A DNA stretch of 64,000 bases from Candidatus Omnitrophota bacterium (GTDB lineage Bacteria > Omnitrophota > Gorgyraeia > JAHJTE01). The stretch lies in NCBI GenBank assembly GCA_040753675.1, contig JBFMEB010000003.1, positions 1,715 through 65,714 of the forward strand, written 5' to 3'. Below the pieces are notes generated by a model. It saw nothing but the letters and a program-made list of their open reading frames with translations. It ran no database searches and was not told where the DNA came from. The position numbers and the translations under genes were made by a program. Of the stretch, positions 5,208-58,763 are shown one piece after another. Numbering within the stretch: the first letter of the stretch is position 1; each line of letters starts with the position of its first letter.

Positions 5208-5299
5208 AACATTCTCCTACGTTTTTCTAAAACAGCTATCTGCTGTCTGGTATTTCAGTATGCTTTATACTGCTTTATCTGCTAAGTAATGCTACTATA

Positions 5300-5405
5300 T
5301 TTATATCAAATATTAAAAATTAAATATTAAAATTACATATCAAAGTTTAAAAATTTTAAATTTTACATTGTCATTTTGATTTTTACATTTTGATTTTTGC
5401 ATTAA
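5300..5405. repeat. AT-rich AAAATGACAATG-core palindromic repeat (copy R1, inverted)
   Basis: ttttacattgtcattttgatttttacattttgatttttgcatt. Core (RC) at 5366..5377. Confidence 0.6.
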
Positions 5406-9571: not shown

Positions 9572-9847
9572 TTAAAGCCTTATACTGATAATCAATAAAA
9601 TTAATGATAGTAACAGGGTAACCACTCCGGCTAACACTCTGGCTTGCATAATGATAGAGGTAATATCGAATTCCTTTTCTAAGGCTAATCTCAGCTTATC
9701 TGTAGAAATCTTTTTATTAAGAAAATTATTTAGCCTTAACACCTGCTCTGGGAACAAAATCAGACCCAAAGAAAGTAATGCCCCGATTACACCAAACACA
9801 GAACCGCCGATTCTTAACAAGTCTGTCAAGGTAAAAATATTCTCCAT
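9572..9847 (-). CDS. small membrane protein
   Basis: 91 aa with two predicted transmembrane helices. Confidence 0.3.
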   Translation of the reverse strand: MENIFTLTDLLRIGGSVFGVIGALLSLGLILFPEQVLRLNNFLNKKISTDKLRLALEKEFDITSIIMQARVLAGVVTLLLSLILLIISIRL

Positions 9848-9875
9848 CCTAACCTCCTTTTTAAATTAGTTTATT

Positions 9876-10730
9876 CTACCACTCTATAACACTTAAGTCA
9901 AATACAGGCCCATCTTTACAAACCCGTTTATATCCTGCTTTGGTAAGCACAGCACAACCAAAGCAAGCACCTGTGCCACAAGCCATATATTCTTCTAATA
10001 AGCCAAAGCAACTAATCTTATTTTTTTTGGATATTTCTGCTACTCTCTTTAGCATGGGTTTGGGGCCGCAAGCGTAAATAGTTTGTAGTTTGTCCCTCGA
10101 CTTCGCTCGGGATCCTGAGCTTGTCGAAGGATAGTTTGTAGTTTGTAGTTTGTTTAGTAGTAAATCGGCAACTGTACCTTTGAATCCTTTTGAGCCGTCG
10201 TCTGTAGCTACTTTTACCTCATAGCCAAAATCTTTAAACTCTTCTTCGCATAGAATATGGCGTTTTGTCTTAGTGCCTATTAAAACAATTTGGCTTTGGG
10301 CTGTGCCTGCCGGCCGGCAAGGCAGTGGCTTTGGGTTATGGACTAACTTCTTTGCTAAAAATAAAAGCGGTGCCACACCTATCCCACCAGCAACGAGTAT
10401 CGAGCATCTAGCATCAAGTATTGAGTGCTCAAATCCATTCCCTAACGGTCCTAAGACATCAACATACTGTCCCTTTTGCTTCTCTGATAAAATTTTTGTC
10501 CCTTCTCCGACAACTTTGTATAAAATCTCTATAGATTTTTTATTATCACTTACATTATGAATTCCCAGGGGTTTTCTCAATAACGGCTTATAAATATAAT
10601 TAATTTTAATATTCAAAAATTGGCCTGGTAAGGCTACTTTCGCAATCTCTGGTGCATCAATCTGCATTTTATAGAAATTATCTATGATTTTGTTATTTGC
10701 AATTATTTTTGCCATTAAAACCATATTCAT
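9876..10730 (-). CDS. pyrK: dihydroorotate dehydrogenase electron transfer subunit (carries an in-frame repeat insertion)
   Basis: 284 aa with an FAD/NAD-binding ferredoxin-reductase fold and the C-terminal 2Fe-2S motif CGTGACFGCAV. It carries an inserted segment TNYPSTSSGSRAKSRDKLQT flanked by a duplicated KLQT. Confidence 0.8.
   Translation of the reverse strand: MNMVLMAKIIANNKIIDNFYKMQIDAPEIAKVALPGQFLNIKINYIYKPLLRKPLGIHNVSDNKKSIEILYKVVGEGTKILSEKQKGQYVDVLGPLGNGFEHSILDARCSILVAGGIGVAPLLFLAKKLVHNPKPLPCRPAGTAQSQIVLIGTKTKRHILCEEEFKDFGYEVKVATDDGSKGFKGTVADLLLNKLQTTNYPSTSSGSRAKSRDKLQTIYACGPKPMLKRVAEISKKNKISCFGLLEEYMACGTGACFGCAVLTKAGYKRVCKDGPVFDLSVIEW
10081..10160. repeat. palindromic mini-insertion with flanking direct repeats inside pyrK
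   Basis: gtttgtagtttgt direct repeats flank a GC-rich imperfect palindrome centred on ggatcc. Heptad tagtttg repeats follow. Confidence 0.6.
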
Positions 10731-10740
10731 ATCTTATTTC

Positions 10741-11385
10741 TTATTTAAAAATCTCCCCTGTCTCCGTGCTCCAAAAAAGCAAATCTAGATGGCTAGGGGG
10801 GATCTTTACCTTTTGACAGAATTTCTTTAACTTGTGTTCTGTCTCTAAATATAATCTTTTTGTTAAAGTCTTTGGCAATTCTTTGATAACCCCAAACTTT
10901 TTTAAATTCCTTAAGATATGAATATCTAATATTGCCAAATTATCCCCAAGCCCAATGTTTCTTAAAAAATGGCTTGCTTCCTTATAGCCAATGCCTTTTA
11001 TATTTCCTACCAGCCATTCTCTCGTAGATAAAATATCTTTATTAACCAACCTATTCTTCATGCAAAGTCTGCCATTATTTTTAAAAAAATTTCGGCATTC
11101 TACTAAGTATCTGGATTTATTTTTATAAAATCTTGCCTTTTTTAGAAAAGGCCTGATTTTTTTAACATTACCTTTAAAAAGTAACCTGTTCTTCTTTAGA
11201 TTATTTATTATAGAGTCGCAAACTTTTGCCTTGGATTGCGGGGTGAGTATGCAGAAACATAATTCAGAGAAAATTTCTTCGTCGCTTTTGGCCCAAACCT
11301 TTTTAAAATCATCCAAGCGCTTTAGGATTTCTTGCCTTTTGGCTTTATATATCTTTTTTAATTGATTTATTTGTTTTTGTTGCAT
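10741..11385 (-). CDS. Ogg2/archaeal-type 8-oxoguanine DNA glycosylase (HhH-GPD)
   Basis: 214 aa with a helix-hairpin-helix GIGYKEASHFLRNIG motif followed by the catalytic Asp region. Size and motif fit the Ogg2/TM1821 family. Confidence 0.6.
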   Translation of the reverse strand: MQQKQINQLKKIYKAKRQEILKRLDDFKKVWAKSDEEIFSELCFCILTPQSKAKVCDSIINNLKKNRLLFKGNVKKIRPFLKKARFYKNKSRYLVECRNFFKNNGRLCMKNRLVNKDILSTREWLVGNIKGIGYKEASHFLRNIGLGDNLAILDIHILRNLKKFGVIKELPKTLTKRLYLETEHKLKKFCQKVKIPPSHLDLLFWSTETGEIFK

Positions 11386-12363: not shown

Positions 12364-12852
12364 TTAGGAATTAGAAATTTTTAAAAGTCTTATAACTTGT
12401 TTTATTGCCTCATCAACTGTTTGCGCCCTAATAACTCCCGGCACATCCCAAGATCCCAGGCTTATAACCGGTATGCCAAATTGCAGACAGTATGCTATCT
12501 CTGAAAGCGTACCCGCTTCACCTGGAAGAGCTATAACCACATCAGCGCTCTTTACCACCAGTACGTTTCTAGCCAAGCCTAACCCAGTTGGAATTACAAT
12601 ATCCACATATTTATTAGCATATTTTTTGTTGTAACTTGTTATAATTCCTATTGTTATGCCATTTCCATACTTAAAACCTTTACAAACTGATTCCATTACT
12701 CCACTTAAACCGCCACAAACAATAAAATCAACCACTTTAGCCAATTTTTTACCTAAATTTATGGCAATTTGCTCCACTTCTTTAGTACAGCTATGACCGC
12801 CTATAACTCCTACAATCTTCTTTCTCATCTCAAAAATAGTAGCGAGTAGCAA
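12364..12852 (-). CDS. TIGR00725/LOG-like Rossmann-fold nucleotide-binding protein
   Basis: GGxxGVMES and PGGxGTLSE motifs of the LOG/lysine-decarboxylase-like family. The true start is probably the internal Met at about 12828, because the first codons overlap a palindromic repeat element. Confidence 0.6.
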   Translation of the reverse strand: MLLATIFEMRKKIVGVIGGHSCTKEVEQIAINLGKKLAKVVDFIVCGGLSGVMESVCKGFKYGNGITIGIITSYNKKYANKYVDIVIPTGLGLARNVLVVKSADVVIALPGEAGTLSEIAYCLQFGIPVISLGSWDVPGVIRAQTVDEAIKQVIRLLKISNS

Positions 12853-12910
12853 GTAGAGAGTAGAGAGATTTTTTCTCGCTACTCGTTGCTCGCTACTCTC
12901 TACTTAACAT
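12836..12910. repeat. GTAGCGAG-type palindromic repeat element, copy A
   Basis: Hairpin-forming arms (agtagcgagtagcaagtagagag / ctcgctactcgttgctcgctactctctact). A near-identical copy in inverted orientation lies at 34343..34422. Confidence 0.7.
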
Positions 12911-34342: not shown

Positions 34343-34422
34343 ACTTAAAGTAGAGAGTAGCGAGAAACGAGTAGCGAGAAAAATGAAAAATCTCTCTACT
34401 TGCTACTCTCTACTCGCTACTT
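34343..34422. repeat. GTAGCGAG-type palindromic repeat element, copy B
   Basis: agtagagagtagcgagaaacgagtagcgag...ctctctacttgctactctctactcgctact. Reverse-complement match to copy A at 12836..12910. Confidence 0.7.
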
Positions 34423-36554: not shown

Positions 36555-36605
36555 TTGATTTTGCTTAAGATCCCTCGGCAGAGCTCGGGATCAAGCAAAA
36601 TCTAA
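36555..36605 (+). terminator. long perfect-stem hairpin downstream of the jag-like gene
   Basis: gattttgcttaagatccc-tcggcagagctc-gggatcaagcaaaatc, a 16-17 bp stem. Confidence 0.45.
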
Positions 36606-36756
36606 GCGCCAGAGACAGATTTTGCTTGACACTTTTGTTTAATTTGCTATTATAATTGCATAAATTATTTAAGTATTCAAGGCAGGTGTTTCACGGGAAA
36701 ACGTTTCAATTGAAACATTTTCATGTGGAACATTATTATGATAGCAAATAATTAAA

Positions 36757-37984: not shown

Positions 37985-38029
37985 GATACAGTAATTAATA
38001 GTGATTAGTAAAAAACAATTAGTTTTAAA

Positions 38030-38132
38030 TGCAAAAATCAAAGTGCAAAAATCAAAATGACAATGTAAAATTTAAAATTTTTGAATTTTTATATGTAATT
38101 TTGATATTTAATTTTTGATATTTGATTTTAAT
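38030..38132. repeat. AT-rich AAAATGACAATG-core palindromic repeat (copy R2)
   Basis: Nearly identical to 45736..45836. Core 12-mer at 38054..38065. Confidence 0.7.
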
Positions 38133-38146
38133 TTGAGAGGAATATT

Positions 38147-42931: not shown

Positions 42932-42939
42932 CCATAAAA

Positions 42940-43043
42940 TAAAATGCAAAAATCAAAAATCAAAAGTCAAAAATACAAATCAAAATTCAAAATTTTACAT
43001 TTTGCATTGTCATTTTGCATTTTGCATTTTGATATTTGAATTT
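42940..43043. repeat. AT-rich AAAATGACAATG-core palindromic repeat (copy R3)
   Basis: Near-perfect palindrome aaatgcaaaaatcaaaa...ttttgatatttgaattt. Core (RC) at 43011..43022. Confidence 0.6.
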
Positions 43044-43049
43044 ACTGTT

Positions 43050-44768
43050 ATGGATTTAGATACTCTTAGACATTCTTGTTCTCACGTTTTAGCCAAGGCA
43101 GTTAAAGAGCTTTGGTCAGACGTAAAATTAGGCATTGGCCCTTCGATAGAAGACGGCTTTTATTATGATTTTGAAAAAGATCCGCCGTTTTCCGAAGAGG
43201 ATTTAGAAAAAATCGAAAATCGTATGCAGCAGATTATTAAGCGCAACGAAAAGTTTACGCGCTTGGATTTGTCTAAAGATGAGGCAATAAGGATTTTTAA
43301 GAGACTCGGCGAGCATTACAAGTTAACCCTGTTGTCAGAGATTCCAGAAGCCCAGGTTTCGCTTTATAAGACAGGCGATAATTTTGTCGATTTATGCCGC
43401 GGGCCACATGTTGAATCTACTGGCCAGATTAAGGTTTTTAAATTGCTCTCATTAGCCGGTGCTTACTGGCACGGCATAGAGACTAACCCCATGCTTCAGA
43501 GAATTTATGGCACTGCTTTTCCAGATAAGAAGTCCTTAGATGAAGATTTAAAGCGCAGGGAAGAGGCAAAGAAAAGAGACCACAGAAAATTAGGTCCTGA
43601 ACTGGGGTTCTTTGATATTTATTATGAGCAGGCAGGCGCAGGTCTTGTGTTTTATCATCCCAAAGGAGCAATGTTACGCAAAATCATAGAAGATTTTGAG
43701 AAAGAAGAACATTTGCGCCGGGGCTATCAGATGGTGATAACACCACACTTATTAAAGCAGGATCTTTGGATTCAATCCGGACATTTTGAATATTACCGCG
43801 ATAATATGTTTGTGTTAGATATCGACGAGAGAGAGTATGCAGTAAAACCCATGAATTGCCCAGGCCATATTTTAATATACAAATCAAAATTGCGCAGTTA
43901 CCGGGAATTGCCTCTGCGGTTTTTTGAGCTGGGCACAGTGTATCGCTATGAAAAAAGCGGAGTTTTGCATGGTCTTTTGCGCGTGCGAGGGTTTACTCAA
44001 GATGATGCACATATTTTTTGTCGGCAAGAAGAATTAAAAGACGAAATTAAAAATGTTATTGATTTTGTGCTGGATACAATGAAGGTATTTGGCTTTTGCG
44101 ACATGCATATTGAATTAAGCACCCAGCCAGAAAAACACATCGGCCTGCCTGAACAGTGGCAGGCAGCAACAACTGCATTAGAAGATTCATTAAAAGAAAG
44201 AAGATTGCCCTATGTTATCAATATCGGAGAAGGCGCATTTTATGGGCCTAAAATAGATATCAAATTAAAAGATGCCTTAAAACGCACATGGCAGTGCGCA
44301 ACTATTCAATGCGATTTTACTCTGCCTCACAGGTTTGATTTAACCTATGTGGATAAAGATGGCAAGCAAAAACAACCGATTATGCTGCATCGTGTCCTCC
44401 TTGGCAGTTTAGAGAGATTTATCGGCGCCTTAATTGAACATTATGCCGGCGCCTTGCCTTTGTGGCTTTCACCGGTTCAAGTTATAATTTTGCCGTTAAA
44501 AGATTCGGTTAATGCCTATAGCCAGAAACTGCAACAGCGGCTAATCAACGAAGGTTTGCGTTGCGAGATTGATTTAGAAAATCAGACTTTGAATAAAAAA
44601 ATCCGCGAAGCAGAGACACAGCGAATTCCTTACATATTGATTGTCGGGGAAAAAGAGGTCGAAAAAGAAGAGGTTTCTGTAAGGAAACGCTCTGTCGGCG
44701 ATCAAGGCGCTATGAAAGTAAGCGAATTTATAAAAAGGGTTAAGAAAGAGATAGAAGAGAAAAAATAG
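43050..44768 (+). CDS. thrS: threonine--tRNA ligase
   Basis: Class II aaRS motifs, an N2/editing region and a C-terminal anticodon-binding domain. The start is probably MDLDTLRHSCSH at 43050. Confidence 0.9.
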   Translation: MDLDTLRHSCSHVLAKAVKELWSDVKLGIGPSIEDGFYYDFEKDPPFSEEDLEKIENRMQQIIKRNEKFTRLDLSKDEAIRIFKRLGEHYKLTLLSEIPEAQVSLYKTGDNFVDLCRGPHVESTGQIKVFKLLSLAGAYWHGIETNPMLQRIYGTAFPDKKSLDEDLKRREEAKKRDHRKLGPELGFFDIYYEQAGAGLVFYHPKGAMLRKIIEDFEKEEHLRRGYQMVITPHLLKQDLWIQSGHFEYYRDNMFVLDIDEREYAVKPMNCPGHILIYKSKLRSYRELPLRFFELGTVYRYEKSGVLHGLLRVRGFTQDDAHIFCRQEELKDEIKNVIDFVLDTMKVFGFCDMHIELSTQPEKHIGLPEQWQAATTALEDSLKERRLPYVINIGEGAFYGPKIDIKLKDALKRTWQCATIQCDFTLPHRFDLTYVDKDGKQKQPIMLHRVLLGSLERFIGALIEHYAGALPLWLSPVQVIILPLKDSVNAYSQKLQQRLINEGLRCEIDLENQTLNKKIREAETQRIPYILIVGEKEVEKEEVSVRKRSVGDQGAMKVSEFIKRVKKEIEEKK

Positions 44769-45712: not shown

Positions 45713-45735
45713 AATAAACTAGCGAGGCTTTTTAA

Positions 45736-45836
45736 TTCAAAAATCAAAGTGCAAAAATCAAAATGACAATGTAAAATTTAAAATTTTTGAATTTTGATAT
45801 GTAATTTTGATATTTAATTTTTGATATTTTATTTTC
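45736..45836. repeat. AT-rich AAAATGACAATG-core palindromic repeat (copy R4)
   Basis: About 95 bp nearly identical to 38030..38132. Core 12-mer at 45760..45771. Confidence 0.7.
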
Positions 45837-45879
45837 TAACGATTTCCTATTTTTTGGTTAGTAAATACAGGAGAAAAAT

Positions 45880-47682: not shown

Positions 47683-49188
47683 ATGATCCTCAGACCCCGG
47701 ACAGAAGACTTAAAAACAATTGGCTATTATTTAGGGAAAATAATAATCGGCTTAGGCCTTATTATGCTTTTGCCATTTGTATTAGCGATATTATTCAACG
47801 AGATAAATCCTGGCTTGGATTTTTTAATAAGTTCTGGGATAAGCCTTTTGATTGGGCTATTACTTAGCAGGCTATGTTTTACCAATAAGGACTTAAACTG
47901 GATGCAAGGAATGATTGTGATTTCTTTTTCTTGGCTGGTAGCAATGTTATTAGGGGCGATACCATTAAATTTAAGCGGTCATTGGAAATCTTATTTAGAT
48001 GCCTGTTTCGAAGCTATGTCAGGATTTGCTACAACAGGCCTTACTCTGGTGCAGGACCTTGATCATCTTTCCTATACGCATAATCTCTGGAGGCATCTGG
48101 GCCCATTTATCGGAGGCCAGGGAATTGCGATTGTTGCGCTCTCATTTTTTGTAAAAGGTACATCCGGAGCATTCAAAATGTATGTTGGAGAAGCCCGTGA
48201 AGAGAGGTTATTGCCAAATGTTATTCATACTTCAAGATTTATTTGGCTAATAAGCATAACCTATTTAATATTAGGCACCCTTGTCTTAGGAATAATTGGA
48301 ATTTTAATCGGCATGAAGCCAGTTAATGCCTTTTTTCACGGCGTCTGCATTTTTATGGCTGGATTTGACACTGCAGGCTTTGCTCCACAGTCTCAAAATG
48401 TCCTTTTTTATCACAGTCTCACTTTTGAAATAGCAACGATTATTATAATAATTCTTGGTTCGCTTAATTTTAATCTGCATTATCAGTTGTGGGTGGGCAG
48501 GCGAAAAGAAATATTTAAAAACATTGAGACCAAGGTATTTTTTACCAGTATAATGCTGGCCTTTTTAATTGTTGTCATCGGGTTGAATCGATTGGGAGTT
48601 TATCCGAAGGCAATAATTTTATTGCGCAAAGGATTCTTCCAACTGATATCCGGTCATACTACAACTGGTTATGCAACTATTTATGCACGTCAGTTTATTA
48701 GCGATTGGGGAAATTTAGCTTTAGTAACCTTAATCGCTGCCATGGGCTTAGGCGGTTGCGCTTGTTCAACTGCCGGCGGTATAAAGATGTTACGCCTCGG
48801 CATTATATTTAAGGCGCTAAAAGAAGACATCAAAAGAATAATACTTCCGGAAAAGGCAATTGTTACTGTAAAATTTCACCACATGAAAGAAGTCCTTTTG
48901 GAAGACAAAGCAGTAAGGGCAACCCTATTAATAACTTTGTCCTATTTAACTCTGTATGGGATAGGAGCGCTTATCGGAACTTTTTTTGGCTATCCGTTTT
49001 TAGATTCTTTATTTGAGTCTACCTCAGCTGCAGCTAACGTTGGTTTTTCTTGCGGTATTACCGATGCTGGGATGCCGGCAGTATTGAAACTTACCTATAT
49101 ATTTCAGATGTGGGCAGGCAGGCTGGAATTTATGTCTATATTTACCTTAATCGGATTTTTGGTAGCAGCGATAAGAGGGAAGAAATGA
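47683..49188 (+). CDS. trkH: TrkH/KtrB family potassium transporter
   Basis: 501 aa polytopic membrane protein with repeated pore-loop GxG motifs (TTGLT, IGGCACSTAGG). Confidence 0.8.
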   Translation: MILRPRTEDLKTIGYYLGKIIIGLGLIMLLPFVLAILFNEINPGLDFLISSGISLLIGLLLSRLCFTNKDLNWMQGMIVISFSWLVAMLLGAIPLNLSGHWKSYLDACFEAMSGFATTGLTLVQDLDHLSYTHNLWRHLGPFIGGQGIAIVALSFFVKGTSGAFKMYVGEAREERLLPNVIHTSRFIWLISITYLILGTLVLGIIGILIGMKPVNAFFHGVCIFMAGFDTAGFAPQSQNVLFYHSLTFEIATIIIIILGSLNFNLHYQLWVGRRKEIFKNIETKVFFTSIMLAFLIVVIGLNRLGVYPKAIILLRKGFFQLISGHTTTGYATIYARQFISDWGNLALVTLIAAMGLGGCACSTAGGIKMLRLGIIFKALKEDIKRIILPEKAIVTVKFHHMKEVLLEDKAVRATLLITLSYLTLYGIGALIGTFFGYPFLDSLFESTSAAANVGFSCGITDAGMPAVLKLTYIFQMWAGRLEFMSIFTLIGFLVAAIRGKK

Positions 49189-49694
49189 TACATAAAGTTT
49201 ACAGTTTACAGTTTACAGTTTACAGGATTTTTCTAATTCTGTTCACTGTTCACTGTTCACTGTTCACTGTTGCTTATGCTCAAGTAATTTCGAGTACAGA
49301 GCTTATTAATAATGCCAAACAATATGACGGCCAAGTTGTTACATATTCCGGCGAAGTTATCGGCGATGTGATGAAGAGAGGAAACTTTGCCTGGTTGAAT
49401 GTTAACGACGGGGCAAATGCCATCGGCATCTGGATAGAAGCCTCTTTAACCAAAGATATTTTATATACAGGTAGTTTTAAATCCAAAGGGGATTTGATAG
49501 AAATAACCGGCATATTCAATCGCGCCTGCCCAGGGCACGGCGGAGATTTAGATATACACGCCAGGGAAATAAAAAAAATACAAGTAGGCAACAAACTATA
49601 TGAAAAACTCGATATTAATAAAAGAAATTTTGCGATTGCGTTGTTTATAATTTTGGGCCTAATATGGATATTAACTCGATTAAAAACCAGATAG
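49185..49694 (+). CDS. YgiW/YdeI-like OB-fold (BOF) secreted protein with C-terminal TM anchor
   Basis: The start MIHKVYSLQ overlaps the trkH stop (ATGA). The signal peptide is encoded by tandem heptamers. The OB-fold pattern is VISSTELINNAKQYDGQVVTYSGEVIGDV...FAWLNVNDGANAIGIWIE. Confidence 0.5.
   Translation: MIHKVYSLQFTVYRIFLILFTVHCSLFTVAYAQVISSTELINNAKQYDGQVVTYSGEVIGDVMKRGNFAWLNVNDGANAIGIWIEASLTKDILYTGSFKSKGDLIEITGIFNRACPGHGGDLDIHAREIKKIQVGNKLYEKLDINKRNFAIALFIILGLIWILTRLKTR
49197..49266 (+). repeat. tandem heptanucleotide repeats (gtttaca)x3 and (ctgttca)x4-5 inside the signal-peptide coding region
   Basis: Direct tandem 7-mers at 49197..49217 and 49232..49266. Confidence 0.8.
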
Positions 49695-50692: not shown

Positions 50693-52807
50693 ATGAAAGT
50701 ATCTTATAATTGGTTAAAAGATTTTGTCGAAATAAATGAGCCGGTCGAATCCCTGCGTCAGAAATTGACAATGGCAGGCGTGGAAGTTACTGACTGTCAG
50801 AAGAAGTCAGGAGATTCTGTGTTGGAAATAGAAATAACTTCAAACCGGCCTGATTGGTTAAGCCATATTGGGGTTGCTAGGGAGATTGCAGCAATAACAA
50901 AATCAAAAATCAAAAATCAAAAATTAAATATTAAAAATAAAGACCAAAAAAATAATCTTCTTGTGAAGATTACAATTGAAGACAAAAAAGATTGTCCACT
51001 ATATACAGGGATGATTATTGACAACATCTCTATTAATAAACCAGACCCAATAATAGCAGAGCGTCTGGCTATTCTTGGTTTACGGCCTATCAGCCCGATC
51101 GTTGATATTACAAACTACATTTTGCTTGAAACTGGCCAGCCCATGCATGCTTTTGATCTGGATAAAATTACTGCCAGGTCACCAAGTCACCAACTTGCCA
51201 AGTCACATGTAGAGATTAGTATACGTCGGGCAAAGCAGGAAGAAAAAATTATAACCATAGACAATGTTGAACGCACATTAAGCTCGGACATTTTGGTTAT
51301 CGCAGATTCGGATGGCCCGATTGCAATTGCTGGAGTTATGGGCGGCAAAGACACAGAAGTAGATAATTCTACAAAGAGAGTATTATTAGAAAGTGCATAT
51401 TTTGATCCGATAACTGTGAGAAGGAGCAGGCAAAAATTAGGAATAACCACTGAGTCTTCTTATAGATTTGAACGTTCAGTGCATATGCCTACTGTGTTAA
51501 AAGCGCAAGAACGCGCAGGTAATTTGATAAAAACAATTTCTCCCGGCGCTAACTTCTCAAAAATTTATTCTAACGGCTCTATTTCTAAAAGAGGAAAAAA
51601 TATAAGCCTGAAGTTGGATATTAATTCTTTAAACCAGACATTGGGGATAGATTTGGCTGGCAATGAAGTTGTGAGTATTTTAAAAAGGCTCCAATTTGGC
51701 ATTGGCCGCACATCCGGTGGCAAACGTTTAAAAGTAAATATCCCGGATTTTCGCTCTGATATAAATTTGCCAGAAGATATTTTTGAAGAAGTAGCCAGAA
51801 TATATGGCTATGATAATATACTGGTCAGTCTTCCTAAAATTTGCATGCAGGGACAAAAGAAGCCCGCAGCTGACATTGACGAAGTAACAGATCTTATTAA
51901 TAAGACGCTTTGTGCCTGCGGTTTTTTTGAGGTAATTACTTATAGTCTGATGAGTCGAGATAAGGTTACGATATGCCCAGATGAGTCAATAATACCAATA
52001 GCCAACCCTTTAAGCAAAGAACAAGAGATTTTGCGTCCCAGTTTATTGCCCGGGCTTTTAGAAGCAGCTGCGTATAACTTTAATCATTCACAGGATGATG
52101 TGAAAATTTTTGAAATGGGAGGGATTTTCGAGCATCTAAATAATAAGACAAAAGAAGGCTTAAACTTAGGTATCTTAAGTTGCGGTGAAAAAATCTGCGA
52201 TTGGCACAGGCAAGCAATATTAAAAGAAAAAAATGCGGTTAACTTTTTTGATTTAAAAGGGGTGGTAGAAAGTATTTTGTCAGAGTTGGGCATAGAGTAC
52301 GAAAAGGTTAGTTTTAGAGAAGGGGATTTGCCAATTTATGCGCCTGGAGAAACAGCTAATATTTTTATTAACGAAAAAGAAATTGGTTCGCTAGGGAAAG
52401 TAAACTCGCAATTATTAAATAAATGGGATATAAGAAAACAGAATTTGTTTGCGAGCTTAATTGACCTTGAGGCATTGCTTGAATTTGTAGATTTAAAAAA
52501 GAATTTCAAGAAATTTTCTTCTTTTCCGGCTGCAGAGCGCGATTTAAGTTTTATCATAAAAGAGAACATTAGCGTAAAAGAGATTAAGGAGGCAATTAAT
52601 AAAGAAGGCATAAAATTTTTAGAAAATATTTCACTATTCGACGAATACAAGGGGAAAAATATACCTAAAGGTTTTCGCAGTTTATCGTTTTCGTTTAAAT
52701 TCTCTGGCGAAAACCACACGTTAAAAGAGGAAGAGATAAATAATTCGCTAGCCAAGATTAAGACTACCTTAATGGATAAATTTTCTGTATCAATGCGCGA
52801 GAATTAA
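50693..52807 (+). CDS. pheT: phenylalanine--tRNA ligase beta subunit
   Basis: 704 aa with B3/B4, B5 and FDX-ACB domains. It contains an in-frame AT-repeat-encoded insertion (ITKSKIKNQKLNIKNKDQKNN). Confidence 0.9.
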   Translation: MKVSYNWLKDFVEINEPVESLRQKLTMAGVEVTDCQKKSGDSVLEIEITSNRPDWLSHIGVAREIAAITKSKIKNQKLNIKNKDQKNNLLVKITIEDKKDCPLYTGMIIDNISINKPDPIIAERLAILGLRPISPIVDITNYILLETGQPMHAFDLDKITARSPSHQLAKSHVEISIRRAKQEEKIITIDNVERTLSSDILVIADSDGPIAIAGVMGGKDTEVDNSTKRVLLESAYFDPITVRRSRQKLGITTESSYRFERSVHMPTVLKAQERAGNLIKTISPGANFSKIYSNGSISKRGKNISLKLDINSLNQTLGIDLAGNEVVSILKRLQFGIGRTSGGKRLKVNIPDFRSDINLPEDIFEEVARIYGYDNILVSLPKICMQGQKKPAADIDEVTDLINKTLCACGFFEVITYSLMSRDKVTICPDESIIPIANPLSKEQEILRPSLLPGLLEAAAYNFNHSQDDVKIFEMGGIFEHLNNKTKEGLNLGILSCGEKICDWHRQAILKEKNAVNFFDLKGVVESILSELGIEYEKVSFREGDLPIYAPGETANIFINEKEIGSLGKVNSQLLNKWDIRKQNLFASLIDLEALLEFVDLKKNFKKFSSFPAAERDLSFIIKENISVKEIKEAINKEGIKFLENISLFDEYKGKNIPKGFRSLSFSFKFSGENHTLKEEEINNSLAKIKTTLMDKFSVSMREN

Positions 52808-57902: not shown

Positions 57903-57992
57903 TAAATATCAAATTGCAAAATGTAAAATGACAATGTAAAATTTTAAATTTTTATTTGTAATTTTGATATTTGATTTTTGATATTTGATTTT
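57903..57992. repeat. AT-rich AAAATGACAATG-core palindromic repeat (copy R5)
   Basis: atgtaaaatgacaatgtaaaat...ttttgatatttgatttttgatatttgatttt. Core at 57926..57937. Confidence 0.6.
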
Positions 57993-58763
57993 ATGAGAGT
58001 ACTATTTATAGGCGATATAGTAGGCAGGCCAGGCAGAGAGACAATTGCCAAGCTTCTACCAGGGCTAAAGAAAGAATTTAATCTGGATTTGATTTTAGCC
58101 AATGCTGAAAATGCTGCCGGGGGCTCCAGCATCACTGCCTCAGTTGCTAATGAATTATTTAGTGCTGGCGTTGATGCCTTAACCAGCGGCGACCATATCT
58201 TCAAAAAGAAAGAAGTTTTTGAGATTATTGCTCATCCTAGGATCTTGCGTCCGGCAAACTTTCCTGAAAATGTCCCTGGCAAAGGCCATATTTTAATAAA
58301 CAAAGACAGCAATAAAGTTTTAATTATAAACTTGCAGGGAAGGGTTTTTATGAGCCCTATAGATTGCCCCTTTAGGGTAGCGCGCAATATCTTAGCTGGT
58401 GTAGAGGATACCAAGATTATTATTGTGGATATGCATGCTGAGGCAACCAGCGAAAAGATAGCCCTTGGCTGGTTTTTAGATGGTAAGGTAAGCGCGATAT
58501 TCGGGACTCATACTCACGTTCAGACAGCGGATGAGTGTATTTTGCCCGAGGGGACTGCTTTTATAACTGATGTTGGCATGACCGGCTCTTGCGCTTCTGT
58601 TATTGGCAGAAAAAAAGAGCAGATTATCGAACGTTTCCTAAGCGGGATTCCAACCCGTTTCGAATTAGCCAAAGGCGATGAACAGTTGCAAGGTGCAGTA
58701 GTAGATATCGACGAGAAAACTGGTAAGGCAAGGTCGATTGAGAGAATAAAGCGCAAAGCATAG
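57993..58763 (+). CDS. ymdB: YmdB-like TIGR00282 metallophosphoesterase (2',3'-cyclic-nucleotide phosphodiesterase)
   Basis: MRVLFIGDIVGRPGR...ANAENAAGG...GDH motifs. Conserved position downstream of rny. Confidence 0.8.
   Translation: MRVLFIGDIVGRPGRETIAKLLPGLKKEFNLDLILANAENAAGGSSITASVANELFSAGVDALTSGDHIFKKKEVFEIIAHPRILRPANFPENVPGKGHILINKDSNKVLIINLQGRVFMSPIDCPFRVARNILAGVEDTKIIIVDMHAEATSEKIALGWFLDGKVSAIFGTHTHVQTADECILPEGTAFITDVGMTGSCASVIGRKKEQIIERFLSGIPTRFELAKGDEQLQGAVVDIDEKTGKARSIERIKRKA

Follow-up and report, generated by a model that had tools for sequence, protein, structure and literature searches.

The stretch of Candidatus Omnitrophota DNA analysed here (64 kb, referred to below as the window) raises the question of how a GC-rich palindrome came to lie, in frame, within a pyrK gene. 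The original prediction had read the palindrome as an insertion of the miniature inverted-repeat transposable element (MITE) type, bordered by direct repeats resembling a target-site duplication (TSD). Our analysis makes it probable that the palindrome is instead a passenger copy of a very small dispersed repeat, similar to the repetitive extragenic palindromes (REPs), which lies in a native array of heptads and has no TSD. The host gene is an intact open reading frame (ORF) of 284 aa at 9876-10730 on the minus strand, in a metagenome-assembled genome (MAG) of Candidatus Omnitrophota. Its product was identified as PyrK, the electron-transfer subunit of dihydroorotate dehydrogenase B, by NCBIfam family models of the PRK00054 family (E 1e-57) and by alignment to the solved PyrK chains 5ksw_B and 1ep3_B (E about 1e-30). 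An NCBI protein labelled 'MAG: Candidatus Omnitrophota' is 100% identical to it, and the exact protein was found on one contig only.

An imperfect palindrome of 37 nt, CCCTCGACTTCGCTCGGGATCCTGAGCTTGTCGAAGG, is indeed present at 10094-10130 with GGATCC at its centre. Its coding-strand fold reaches -10.1 kcal/mol (z = -4.2), beyond what is expected by chance, given that none of 200 shuffled sequences was equally stable. The direct repeats predicted to border the palindrome are present and exact, but they are 16 nt long and not 13 nt (ATAGTTTGTAGTTTGT at 10078-10093 and 10131-10146). The TAGTTTG heptads reported beside the palindrome occur on both sides of it, and Tandem Repeats Finder (TRF) detected 3.1 copies at 10132-10153 and 2.1 copies at 10079-10093. 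Read in the sense of the gene (minus strand), the heptads make up an upstream part, (ACAAACT)x3.1 at 10132-10153, which scores 100% matches in TRF, encodes NKLQTTNY and aligns to KNILSTTDY of the orthologues, and a downstream part, (ACAAACT)x2.1 at 10078-10092, which encodes KLQTI and aligns to RLSTI. When the 39 nt at 10093-10131 are removed, the remaining sequence reads AAC(AAACTAC)4AAACTATTTAC, which is a perfect (ACAAACT)x5.3 array encoding LLLNKLQTTNYKLQTIYACGP. Since deletion of 39 nt restores a perfect array, the 16-nt repeats that had been taken for a TSD are the two halves of one pre-existing array that was cut in two. The same 39 nt have a GC content of 0.62, compared with 0.37 for the remainder of pyrK and 38% for the whole window.

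Comparison with 120 Omnitrophota PyrK orthologues places the boundaries at the protein level. In every insertion-free orthologue 13 residues separate LL from IYACGP, with the consensus K-N-I-L-S-T-T-D-Y-R-L-S-T, and deletion of the 39 nt returns the window's PyrK to this length. Around the insert the window's protein reads LLLNKLQTTNYPSTSSGSRAKSRDKLQTIYACGP, that is, L-N-K-L-Q-T-T-N-Y followed by PSTSSGSRAKSRD and K-L-Q-T, and its LNKLQTTNY and KLQT match K-N-I-L-S-T-T-D-Y and R-L-S-T of the orthologues residue for residue. Because they align to orthologue residues, both of the supposedly duplicated KLQT flanks are native. An insertion relative to the orthologues is therefore present, but the net gain amounts to 13 codons, PSTSSGSRAKSRD, and not to about 19 aa. 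The segment is absent from the closest relative (P0002 at locus L001), which is syntenic and 67-72% identical, and from most of the 120 orthologues; alignment to orthologues had been named beforehand as the comparison that could overturn an insertion, and the insertion survived it. A TSD is neither needed nor visible at this site.

The loop that received the insert is encoded by heptads in palindrome-free orthologues as well, namely by (CTATCAG)x4.6 in L001 and by (ACTATCG)x4.7 in L003 and L126, and the seemingly conserved peptide of this protein family, LSTIDYRLSTI, is a mere translation of (CTATCGA)n. Heptads also encode two further PyrK loops, of which the first follows the LAxKL helix and the second precedes GGxGxxP. 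TRF analysis of 72 pyrK genes returned 30 arrays with a period of 7, compared with 7 arrays for period 5 and 5 arrays for period 8, and heptamer repeats are known to be over-represented in bacteria (PMC4692102). Insertion hot spots among the PyrK orthologues coincide with the three heptad-encoded loops, together with one site near residue 61, and the loop that holds the insert is hypervariable in length among the Omnitrophota proteins.

On the coding strand, the 39-nt insert reads T-CC-TTCGACAAGCTCA-GGATCCC-GAGCGAAGTCGA-GGG-A, closed by an outer T·A pair, and encodes (Y)PSTSSGSRAKSR(D), with boundaries that are ambiguous by 1-2 nt. It consists of two hairpin modules on the minus strand. The loop of module 1 is box L1, TTCGACAAGCTCA (10116-10128), a box that the L002 pyrK also contains, with the stem ATCC/GGAT; the loop of module 2 is box L2, GAGCGAAGTCGA (10097-10108; TCGACTTCGCTC on the plus strand), with the stem TCCC/GGGA. 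The centre between them, GGATCCC (10109-10115), supplies both the 3' arm of stem a and the 5' arm of stem b and places the window copy in the class of the family table that has a centre length of 7. Both stems of this copy comprise 4 bp, within a range of 3-8 bp across the family, in which the boxes measure 12-13 nt.

Across copies the element follows the pattern X-cc-L1-GG-rc(X)-Y-L2-rc(Y)-X, where rc denotes the reverse complement. Covariation was tested on 21 copies from different genomes that belong to the class with a 10-nt centre. In stem a, formed by the 5' flank with the start of the centre, 96.8% of positions were paired and 4 of 6 pairs had changed on both sides; in stem b, formed by the end of the centre with the 3' flank, the values were 88% and 6 of 8. 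For both stems none of 500 shuffles reached the observed percentage of pairing or the observed covariation score, and slid controls scored far lower. From these tests we conclude that the conserved boxes are hairpin loops and that the short stems covary. Pairing of the centre with the 5' flank as well as the 3' flank means that a direct repeat X of 2-5 nt is common to the two flanks, and because box L2 is largely complementary to box L1, a single long hairpin represents an alternative fold. We also considered an H-type pseudoknot combining L1:L2 pairing with pairing between centre and flank and rejected it on steric grounds, as we infer that its connecting loops would have zero length.

The insertion left the reading frame of pyrK preserved, in agreement with the original prediction, as the ORF is intact and the insert contributes 13 codons. 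It was also correctly placed just before the conserved C-terminal region, in the loop that precedes the IYACGP strand, where the alignment to the solved PyrK chains is gapped. The window's PyrK was modelled with AlphaFold2 at a mean predicted local distance difference test (pLDDT) score of 85; residues 199-216 are modelled as coil between helix 187-198 and strand 217-221, with pLDDT values below 50 at residues 201-212. The structure model, which had been suggested as a check, thus locates the insert in a low-pLDDT coil, and we predict that it occupies a disordered loop connecting the last helix of the NAD-binding domain to the IYACGP strand. Of the six possible frames of the 39-mer, five contain no stop codon, reading PSTSSGSRAKSRD, LRQAQDPERSRG, FDKLRIPSEVEG, SLDFARDPELVE and PSTSLGILSLSK. 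Given that it spans 13 codons, is open in the frame used and falls in a loop predicted to be disordered, PSTSSGSRAKSRD is most likely translated and tolerated. Ribosome hopping between the duplicated KLQT codons was considered and is unnecessary, since the insert is open and in frame. Further in-frame copies of the family were found in NadE of an Omnitrophica genome, DXS of a Sulfurovum MAG, Lnt of a Sedimentisphaerales MAG and a GH92 glycosidase of a Bacteroidales MAG, in all of which Pfam domains either flank the insert on both sides or span it.

Seven of the 120 PyrK orthologues carry boxes, always at the three heptad-encoded loops. The L002 pyrK contains the same boxes as the window copy, 4 codons downstream of the window's site and between TCAAC flanks, and the L003 pyrK contains a nested 129-nt composite of boxes in a different loop and in the opposite orientation; the latter (P0032) was recovered in two independent assemblies, from ENA and NCBI. 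The pyrK genes of L205, L206 and L207 hold single box-L2 modules of about 18-20 nt and that of L208 a degenerate multi-module element, the box in these four genes being the same as or near-identical to box L2 of the window. The modules of L205 and L206 also split heptad-type arrays, which in L205 is a (TCGATAC)n array that shows no duplication. Unselected DNA from pyrK neighbourhoods contained 5 boxes in about 440 kb, and from this local density about one box-bearing PyrK insert would be expected, compared with the 7 of 120 observed.

Two side observations concern these loops. The composite in the pyrK gene of L003 (P0032, 10001-10951), which is shared by L004, is an in-frame assembly of nested palindromes in which 129 nt encode 43 aa; a box-type dimer adjoins another unit, within which lies a CCCTGGCCTGCC...GGCAGGCAGG palindrome, and the whole folds at -79.9 kcal/mol. 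The pyrK gene of the window harbours a third heptad array at 10389-10415 (about 3.9 copies, AGCATCG-type), which encodes ILDARCSIL directly before GGIGVAP, and the box-type insertions of L003 and L205 occupy the same loop.

The search for further copies that had been recommended gave a divided result, with none in the window and the same boxes in other pyrK genes and genomes. Within the 64 kb, the 37-mer had no second match at up to 3 mismatches and neither had the palindrome arms, which leaves the window copy a singleton there; a scan of the window for relatives among GC islands was uninformative, as the 64 islands were mostly ordinary coding sequence. Beyond the window, we scanned one genome per species with the pattern TTCGACAAGCTCAGG-N0-12-GAGC-N2-5-CGA and obtained at least 120 loci, where by our own estimate about 3-4 would be expected by chance. 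Hosts among the matches listed include Acidobacteriota, Verrucomicrobiota, Patescibacteria, Planctomycetota, Chloroflexota, NC10, Binatia, Nitrospirota, Omnitrophota and Proteobacteria, the last with cultured Sphingomonadaceae and Thiobacillus. Loci L014, L021 and L041 carry CCTTCGACAAGCTCAGGGTCGTCCCGAGCGAAGTCGAGGGACGA, which is the window sequence with GTCG replacing A in the centre, and TCCCGAGCGAAGTCGAGGGAC, corresponding to box L2, is identical in these three loci and in L026. Several copies can occur within a single MAG or chromosome (for example L008/L013/L026/L106 and L077/L091), and the number of modules varies. The minimal class with a centre of 7 nt, to which the window copy belongs, accounts for 20 of the 121 copies listed, and many copies of the family lie just upstream or downstream of genes. 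An adjoining period-7 array was found for 9 of the 121 copies listed versus 3 expected; because this association across phyla is only modest, the heptad context seems to depend on lineage and not to be universal. Viral contigs held only 13 matches to the box pattern and hence gave no sign of a phage vector. An Rfam search of 9800-10800 with E values up to 10 returned noise only and no PyrR site, and neither the box 12-mers nor the signature peptide PELVEG yielded a relevant mention in the searchable literature, so that we did not find a description of the family in either resource.

Among documented elements, intragenic REPs and REP dimers are of the closest kind. REPs are palindromic dispersed repeats of 20-40 bp that are known from several phyla and whose units are often paired in opposite orientation (Di Nocera et al. 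2013, PMC3733652). Some copies or dimers lie inside known ORFs, where they encode 20-30 aa that are probably tolerated in loops, and one REP superfamily lacks a dedicated transposase (PMC3733652). The pyrK element resembles them in its palindromic unit, in the head-to-head pairing of modules of about 18-20 nt and in its intragenic copies (PyrK, NadE, DXS, Lnt and GH92). Unlike the GTAG- or CGTC-tagged REPs, however, the window copy has no unpaired GTAG or CGTC (TGTC/CCTC) tag next to the stem; a GTAG located 5 nt from it belongs to a TAGTTTG heptad, and GTCGTCCC in some relatives is part of a paired stem. Tagged REPs have loops of 2-20 or 4-5 nt and stems of 5-13 or 8-9 bp, whereas here loops of 12-13 nt are conserved and the short stems vary and covary. 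The boxes are, moreover, near-identical across many phyla rather than species-specific, and their density in this genome is low.

In their position within genes, the inserts also recall the Rickettsia palindromic elements (RPEs), which are found in frame in unrelated housekeeping genes and are translated in a manner compatible with protein folding (PMC10969869). Likewise, the pyrK element adds 13 codons in frame to a housekeeping ORF, in a coil with pLDDT below 50 and at a gap in the alignment to solved PyrK. RPEs, on the other hand, measure about 100-150 bp, are confined to Rickettsia and encode a conserved peptide, whereas the pyrK element measures 39 nt, stems from an Omnitrophota MAG, is read in a frame that varies by site and belongs to a family that extends across phyla.

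The best analogue is provided by the small dispersed repeats (SDRs) of cyanobacteria. SDR1-8 of Elhai et al. 2008 (Genome Res 18:1484) are reportedly 21-27 nt long, often located in tandem heptameric repeats and subject to nested insertions, and they are said to show secondary structure with compensatory changes and to have been proposed as the smallest mobile elements. Modules of about 18-20 nt, stem covariation, embedding in heptad arrays and the nested composite of L003 all fit this description. The likeness is one of size, setting and structure, and in-frame insertion into housekeeping genes is not known as a hallmark of SDRs. Since the hosts found here are non-cyanobacterial and SDRs have been reported in Nostocaceae only (PMC5861425), the pyrK family is at most an SDR analogue. 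The pyrK insert also differs from a further group of small elements in that it is in frame and open and needs no bypass. In yeast mitochondria, the GC clusters of Weiller 1989 and the 'byp' elements of Lang et al. 2014 in PNAS are said to be short GC-rich palindromes that invade AT-rich genomes, coding regions included; both kinds are organellar, and the byps are reportedly not in frame and are skipped by ribosome hopping.

Several other explanations of the pyrK palindrome have to be weighed against a passenger repeat. The prediction of a MITE-type insertion would involve about 53-60 nt and a TSD of 13-16 nt, after which a slippage of 7 nt might have restored the frame. Exact 16-nt repeats at a spacing of 53 nt are present, and 53+7 = 60 would be in frame, but we regard this scenario as highly improbable. 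Both repeat copies are native by orthologue alignment, the net insertion is 39 nt, and removal of these 39 nt gives a perfect heptad array; an insertion of 53 or 60 nt with a 16-nt TSD would require an ancestor that was 7 residues shorter than every orthologue. Palindrome-free orthologues have heptad arrays in the same loop, and the single module of L205 splits its (TCGATAC)n array with no duplication. MITEs are short, non-coding elements with inverted symmetry that can fuse in frame with host ORFs, and they are defined by terminal inverted repeats of about 4-30 bp, a TSD and derivation from an insertion sequence (IS) (PMC10969869). They form dispersed multi-copy families of uniform length below 500 bp, and the transposase of the parent IS mobilises them in trans. 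The pyrK element shares the shortness, the inverted symmetry and the in-frame position within a host ORF, but at 39 nt, palindromic throughout and with no TSD, no apparent IS-type terminal repeats and no known parent IS, none having been sought beyond the window, it lies outside this definition. That the segment is simply a native, lineage-specific PyrK loop that is palindromic by chance, with no insertion event, would be in keeping with the hypervariable length of this loop in Omnitrophota. We find it scarcely credible in view of the GC content of 0.62 versus 0.37 for the gene, the near-identical DNA in unrelated genes and phyla, the lack of the segment in the closest orthologue and the way in which it breaks an otherwise perfect tandem array. 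An artefact of assembly or binning, in which chimeric reads or a collapsed repeat brought in the palindrome, is about equally hard to believe: the source is a MAG and a single contig accounts for the exact protein, but the frame is kept, the heptad array resumes in phase, and comparable inserts occur in independent assemblies (P0032 in ENA and NCBI, P0063 on 12 contigs).

Somewhat more room, although still little, has to be given to the possibility that the inserted DNA was co-opted, either as an RNA hairpin in the pyr transcript that acts in processing, pausing or stability, or as a selected flexible peptide that acts in interactions of PyrK with PyrD or another partner. The covarying stems point to constraint on the structure, many family copies lie directly upstream or downstream of genes, box inserts recur in PyrK loops, and REPs in general have been proposed to act as RNA elements (PMC3733652). 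Covariation, however, could equally be explained by the needs of the spreading mechanism, and we found no Rfam match, the PyrR site included, in 9800-10800. The sites differ between orthologues, involving three loops, different codons and both orientations, the encoded peptides vary with the frame, and the insert is predicted to be disordered.

The interpretation as a passenger copy of a dispersed repeat, which we favour, also has evidence to contend with. As the element is a singleton in the 64-kb window and unselected pyrK loci rarely contain it (5 boxes in about 440 kb), high-copy 'selfish' behaviour is not shown for this genome. We found no empty site in a close relative; the nearest orthologue is 67-72% identical, the relatives from the metagenome scan reach at most 51% identity, and a nearest orthologue this distant gives no proof of recent mobility. 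We identified no mobilising enzyme, the ORFs of the window not having been screened for transposases. The invariance of box L1 in the family table is partly built in by the search pattern. Finally, the recurrence in PyrK loops could reflect targeting or a selected benefit instead of neutrality.

The sequences themselves show that a 39-nt element with two inverted hairpin modules entered a pre-existing (ACAAACT)5 array precisely, in frame and without creating a TSD, and they establish its boundaries, its family, the covariation of the stems and its place in a loop. According to the passenger interpretation, which goes further, the pyrK copy would be neutral or selfish and contribute nothing to the working of PyrK, and it would have been retained because it is harmless, about one in three insertions being in frame and five of six frames being open. 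The family may spread via a structure-specific process for which the hairpins serve as substrate in single-stranded form, either DNA or RNA, possibly with the help of a trans-acting HUH/RAYT-like enzyme or through an RNA intermediate. The centre of the element would pair with both flanks, and this complementarity would then reflect recognition or copying of the target. It is possible, but on balance doubtful, that the boxes represent ultra-small mobile hairpin modules of ~20 nt that make up a pan-bacterial class not described before, with loops conserved in more than 10 phyla, stems rebuilt at each site, a flank-complementary centre suggestive of target recognition or copying by base pairing, and a preference for heptad arrays, those encoding protein loops included; together with in-frame heptad expansion, such modules might form a general engine of loop-length change in the housekeeping enzymes of uncultured lineages, Omnitrophota among them. 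Should the family prove to be mobile, its modules, about 20 nt each and 39 nt in the dimer, would be among the smallest mobile DNA known, and the presence of near-identical boxes in phyla so far apart would demand a structure-specific mechanism that they have in common. The boxes also explain 'junk' peptides such as PSTSSG, FDKLR, LRQAQ, PELVEG, LSLSK and ERSRG, which inflate the annotation of hypothetical proteins and distort MAG alignments. The pyrK locus itself offers a clean and datable case of loop lengthening in two steps, an in-frame heptad expansion followed by a hairpin insertion, with the enzyme left unbroken.

The pyrK gene of the window contains a second GC-rich palindrome, CTGTGCCTGCCGGCCGGCAAGGCAG, which spans 25 nt at 10301-10325 (region 10291-10335) and is bordered by exact 10-nt direct repeats, TGGCTTTGGG. 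The encoded peptide, LPCRPAG, belongs to the loop that follows the LAxKL helix. Removal of the palindrome leaves a perfect 2x10-nt tandem repeat, yet a length of 25 nt is not divisible by 3. The same loop holds an insert in 14 of the 120 orthologues; about seven of these inserts are of the PACRQAG/PCLPAG/LPRRQAG type, and the site-B loop contains similar peptides. These observations point to a second palindrome family, CCTGCCTGCCGGCAGGCAGG.

Other repeats are found elsewhere in the window. At 36557-36627, in an intergenic position after a stop codon, GATTTTGCTT-aagatccc-TCGGCAGAGCTC-gggatc-AAGCAAAATC is followed by 15 nt and a further GATTTTGCTT, which corresponds to an X...rc(X)...X pattern (z = -4.3). 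The 10-mer GCTCGGGATC, which had been predicted to be shared by the pyrK palindrome and this hairpin (there given as 36555-36605), is present at 36583, but it is weak when taken alone, with 4 matches versus 1.6 expected and 6 of 100 shuffles reaching 4. With a loop, TCGGCAGAGCTC, that is similar to box L1 and a GGGATC stem, the hairpin could plausibly be related to the pyrK insert, as a degenerate form with a single module. Three intergenic 'beaded' hairpins at 12838-12904, 34350-34421 and 49196-49271 (z = -7.3, -7.1 and -6.4, respectively) each consist of two inverted heptad arrays of about 4.3-4.7 copies, which form helices of 5-7 bp separated by mismatches of 1-2 nt every 7 nt; the last of them begins 8 nt past the stop codon of the ORF at 47683..49188. 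An AT-rich intergenic repeat of about 100 nt is present in at least 5 copies (38020-38135, 45730-45845, 57905-57995, 5290-5405 in reverse and 42935-43050) and is built from inverted heptad arrays of the (AAAATCA)/(TGATTTT) type, with a mean column identity of 78%. Heptads very similar to those of this repeat lie beside a box element in the Patescibacteria-labelled locus L030.

Period 7 dominates the tandem repeats of the window, with 29 of 83 TRF rows and more at period 14. Heptad arrays cluster at 30-33 nt (4.3-4.7 copies), both within ORFs and between genes (window, L001, L003, L125, L134 and L136), and growth by three units would explain this size for the arrays within ORFs but not for those between genes. 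At 50899-50950, (AAAATCA)x7.6 lies in frame in the N-terminal region of the ORF at 50693..52807 and encodes ITKSKIKNQKLNIKNKDQKN. From its N-terminal sequence we take the product of this ORF to be a PheT-like protein, in which case it would represent a second housekeeping gene with a heptad-encoded segment.

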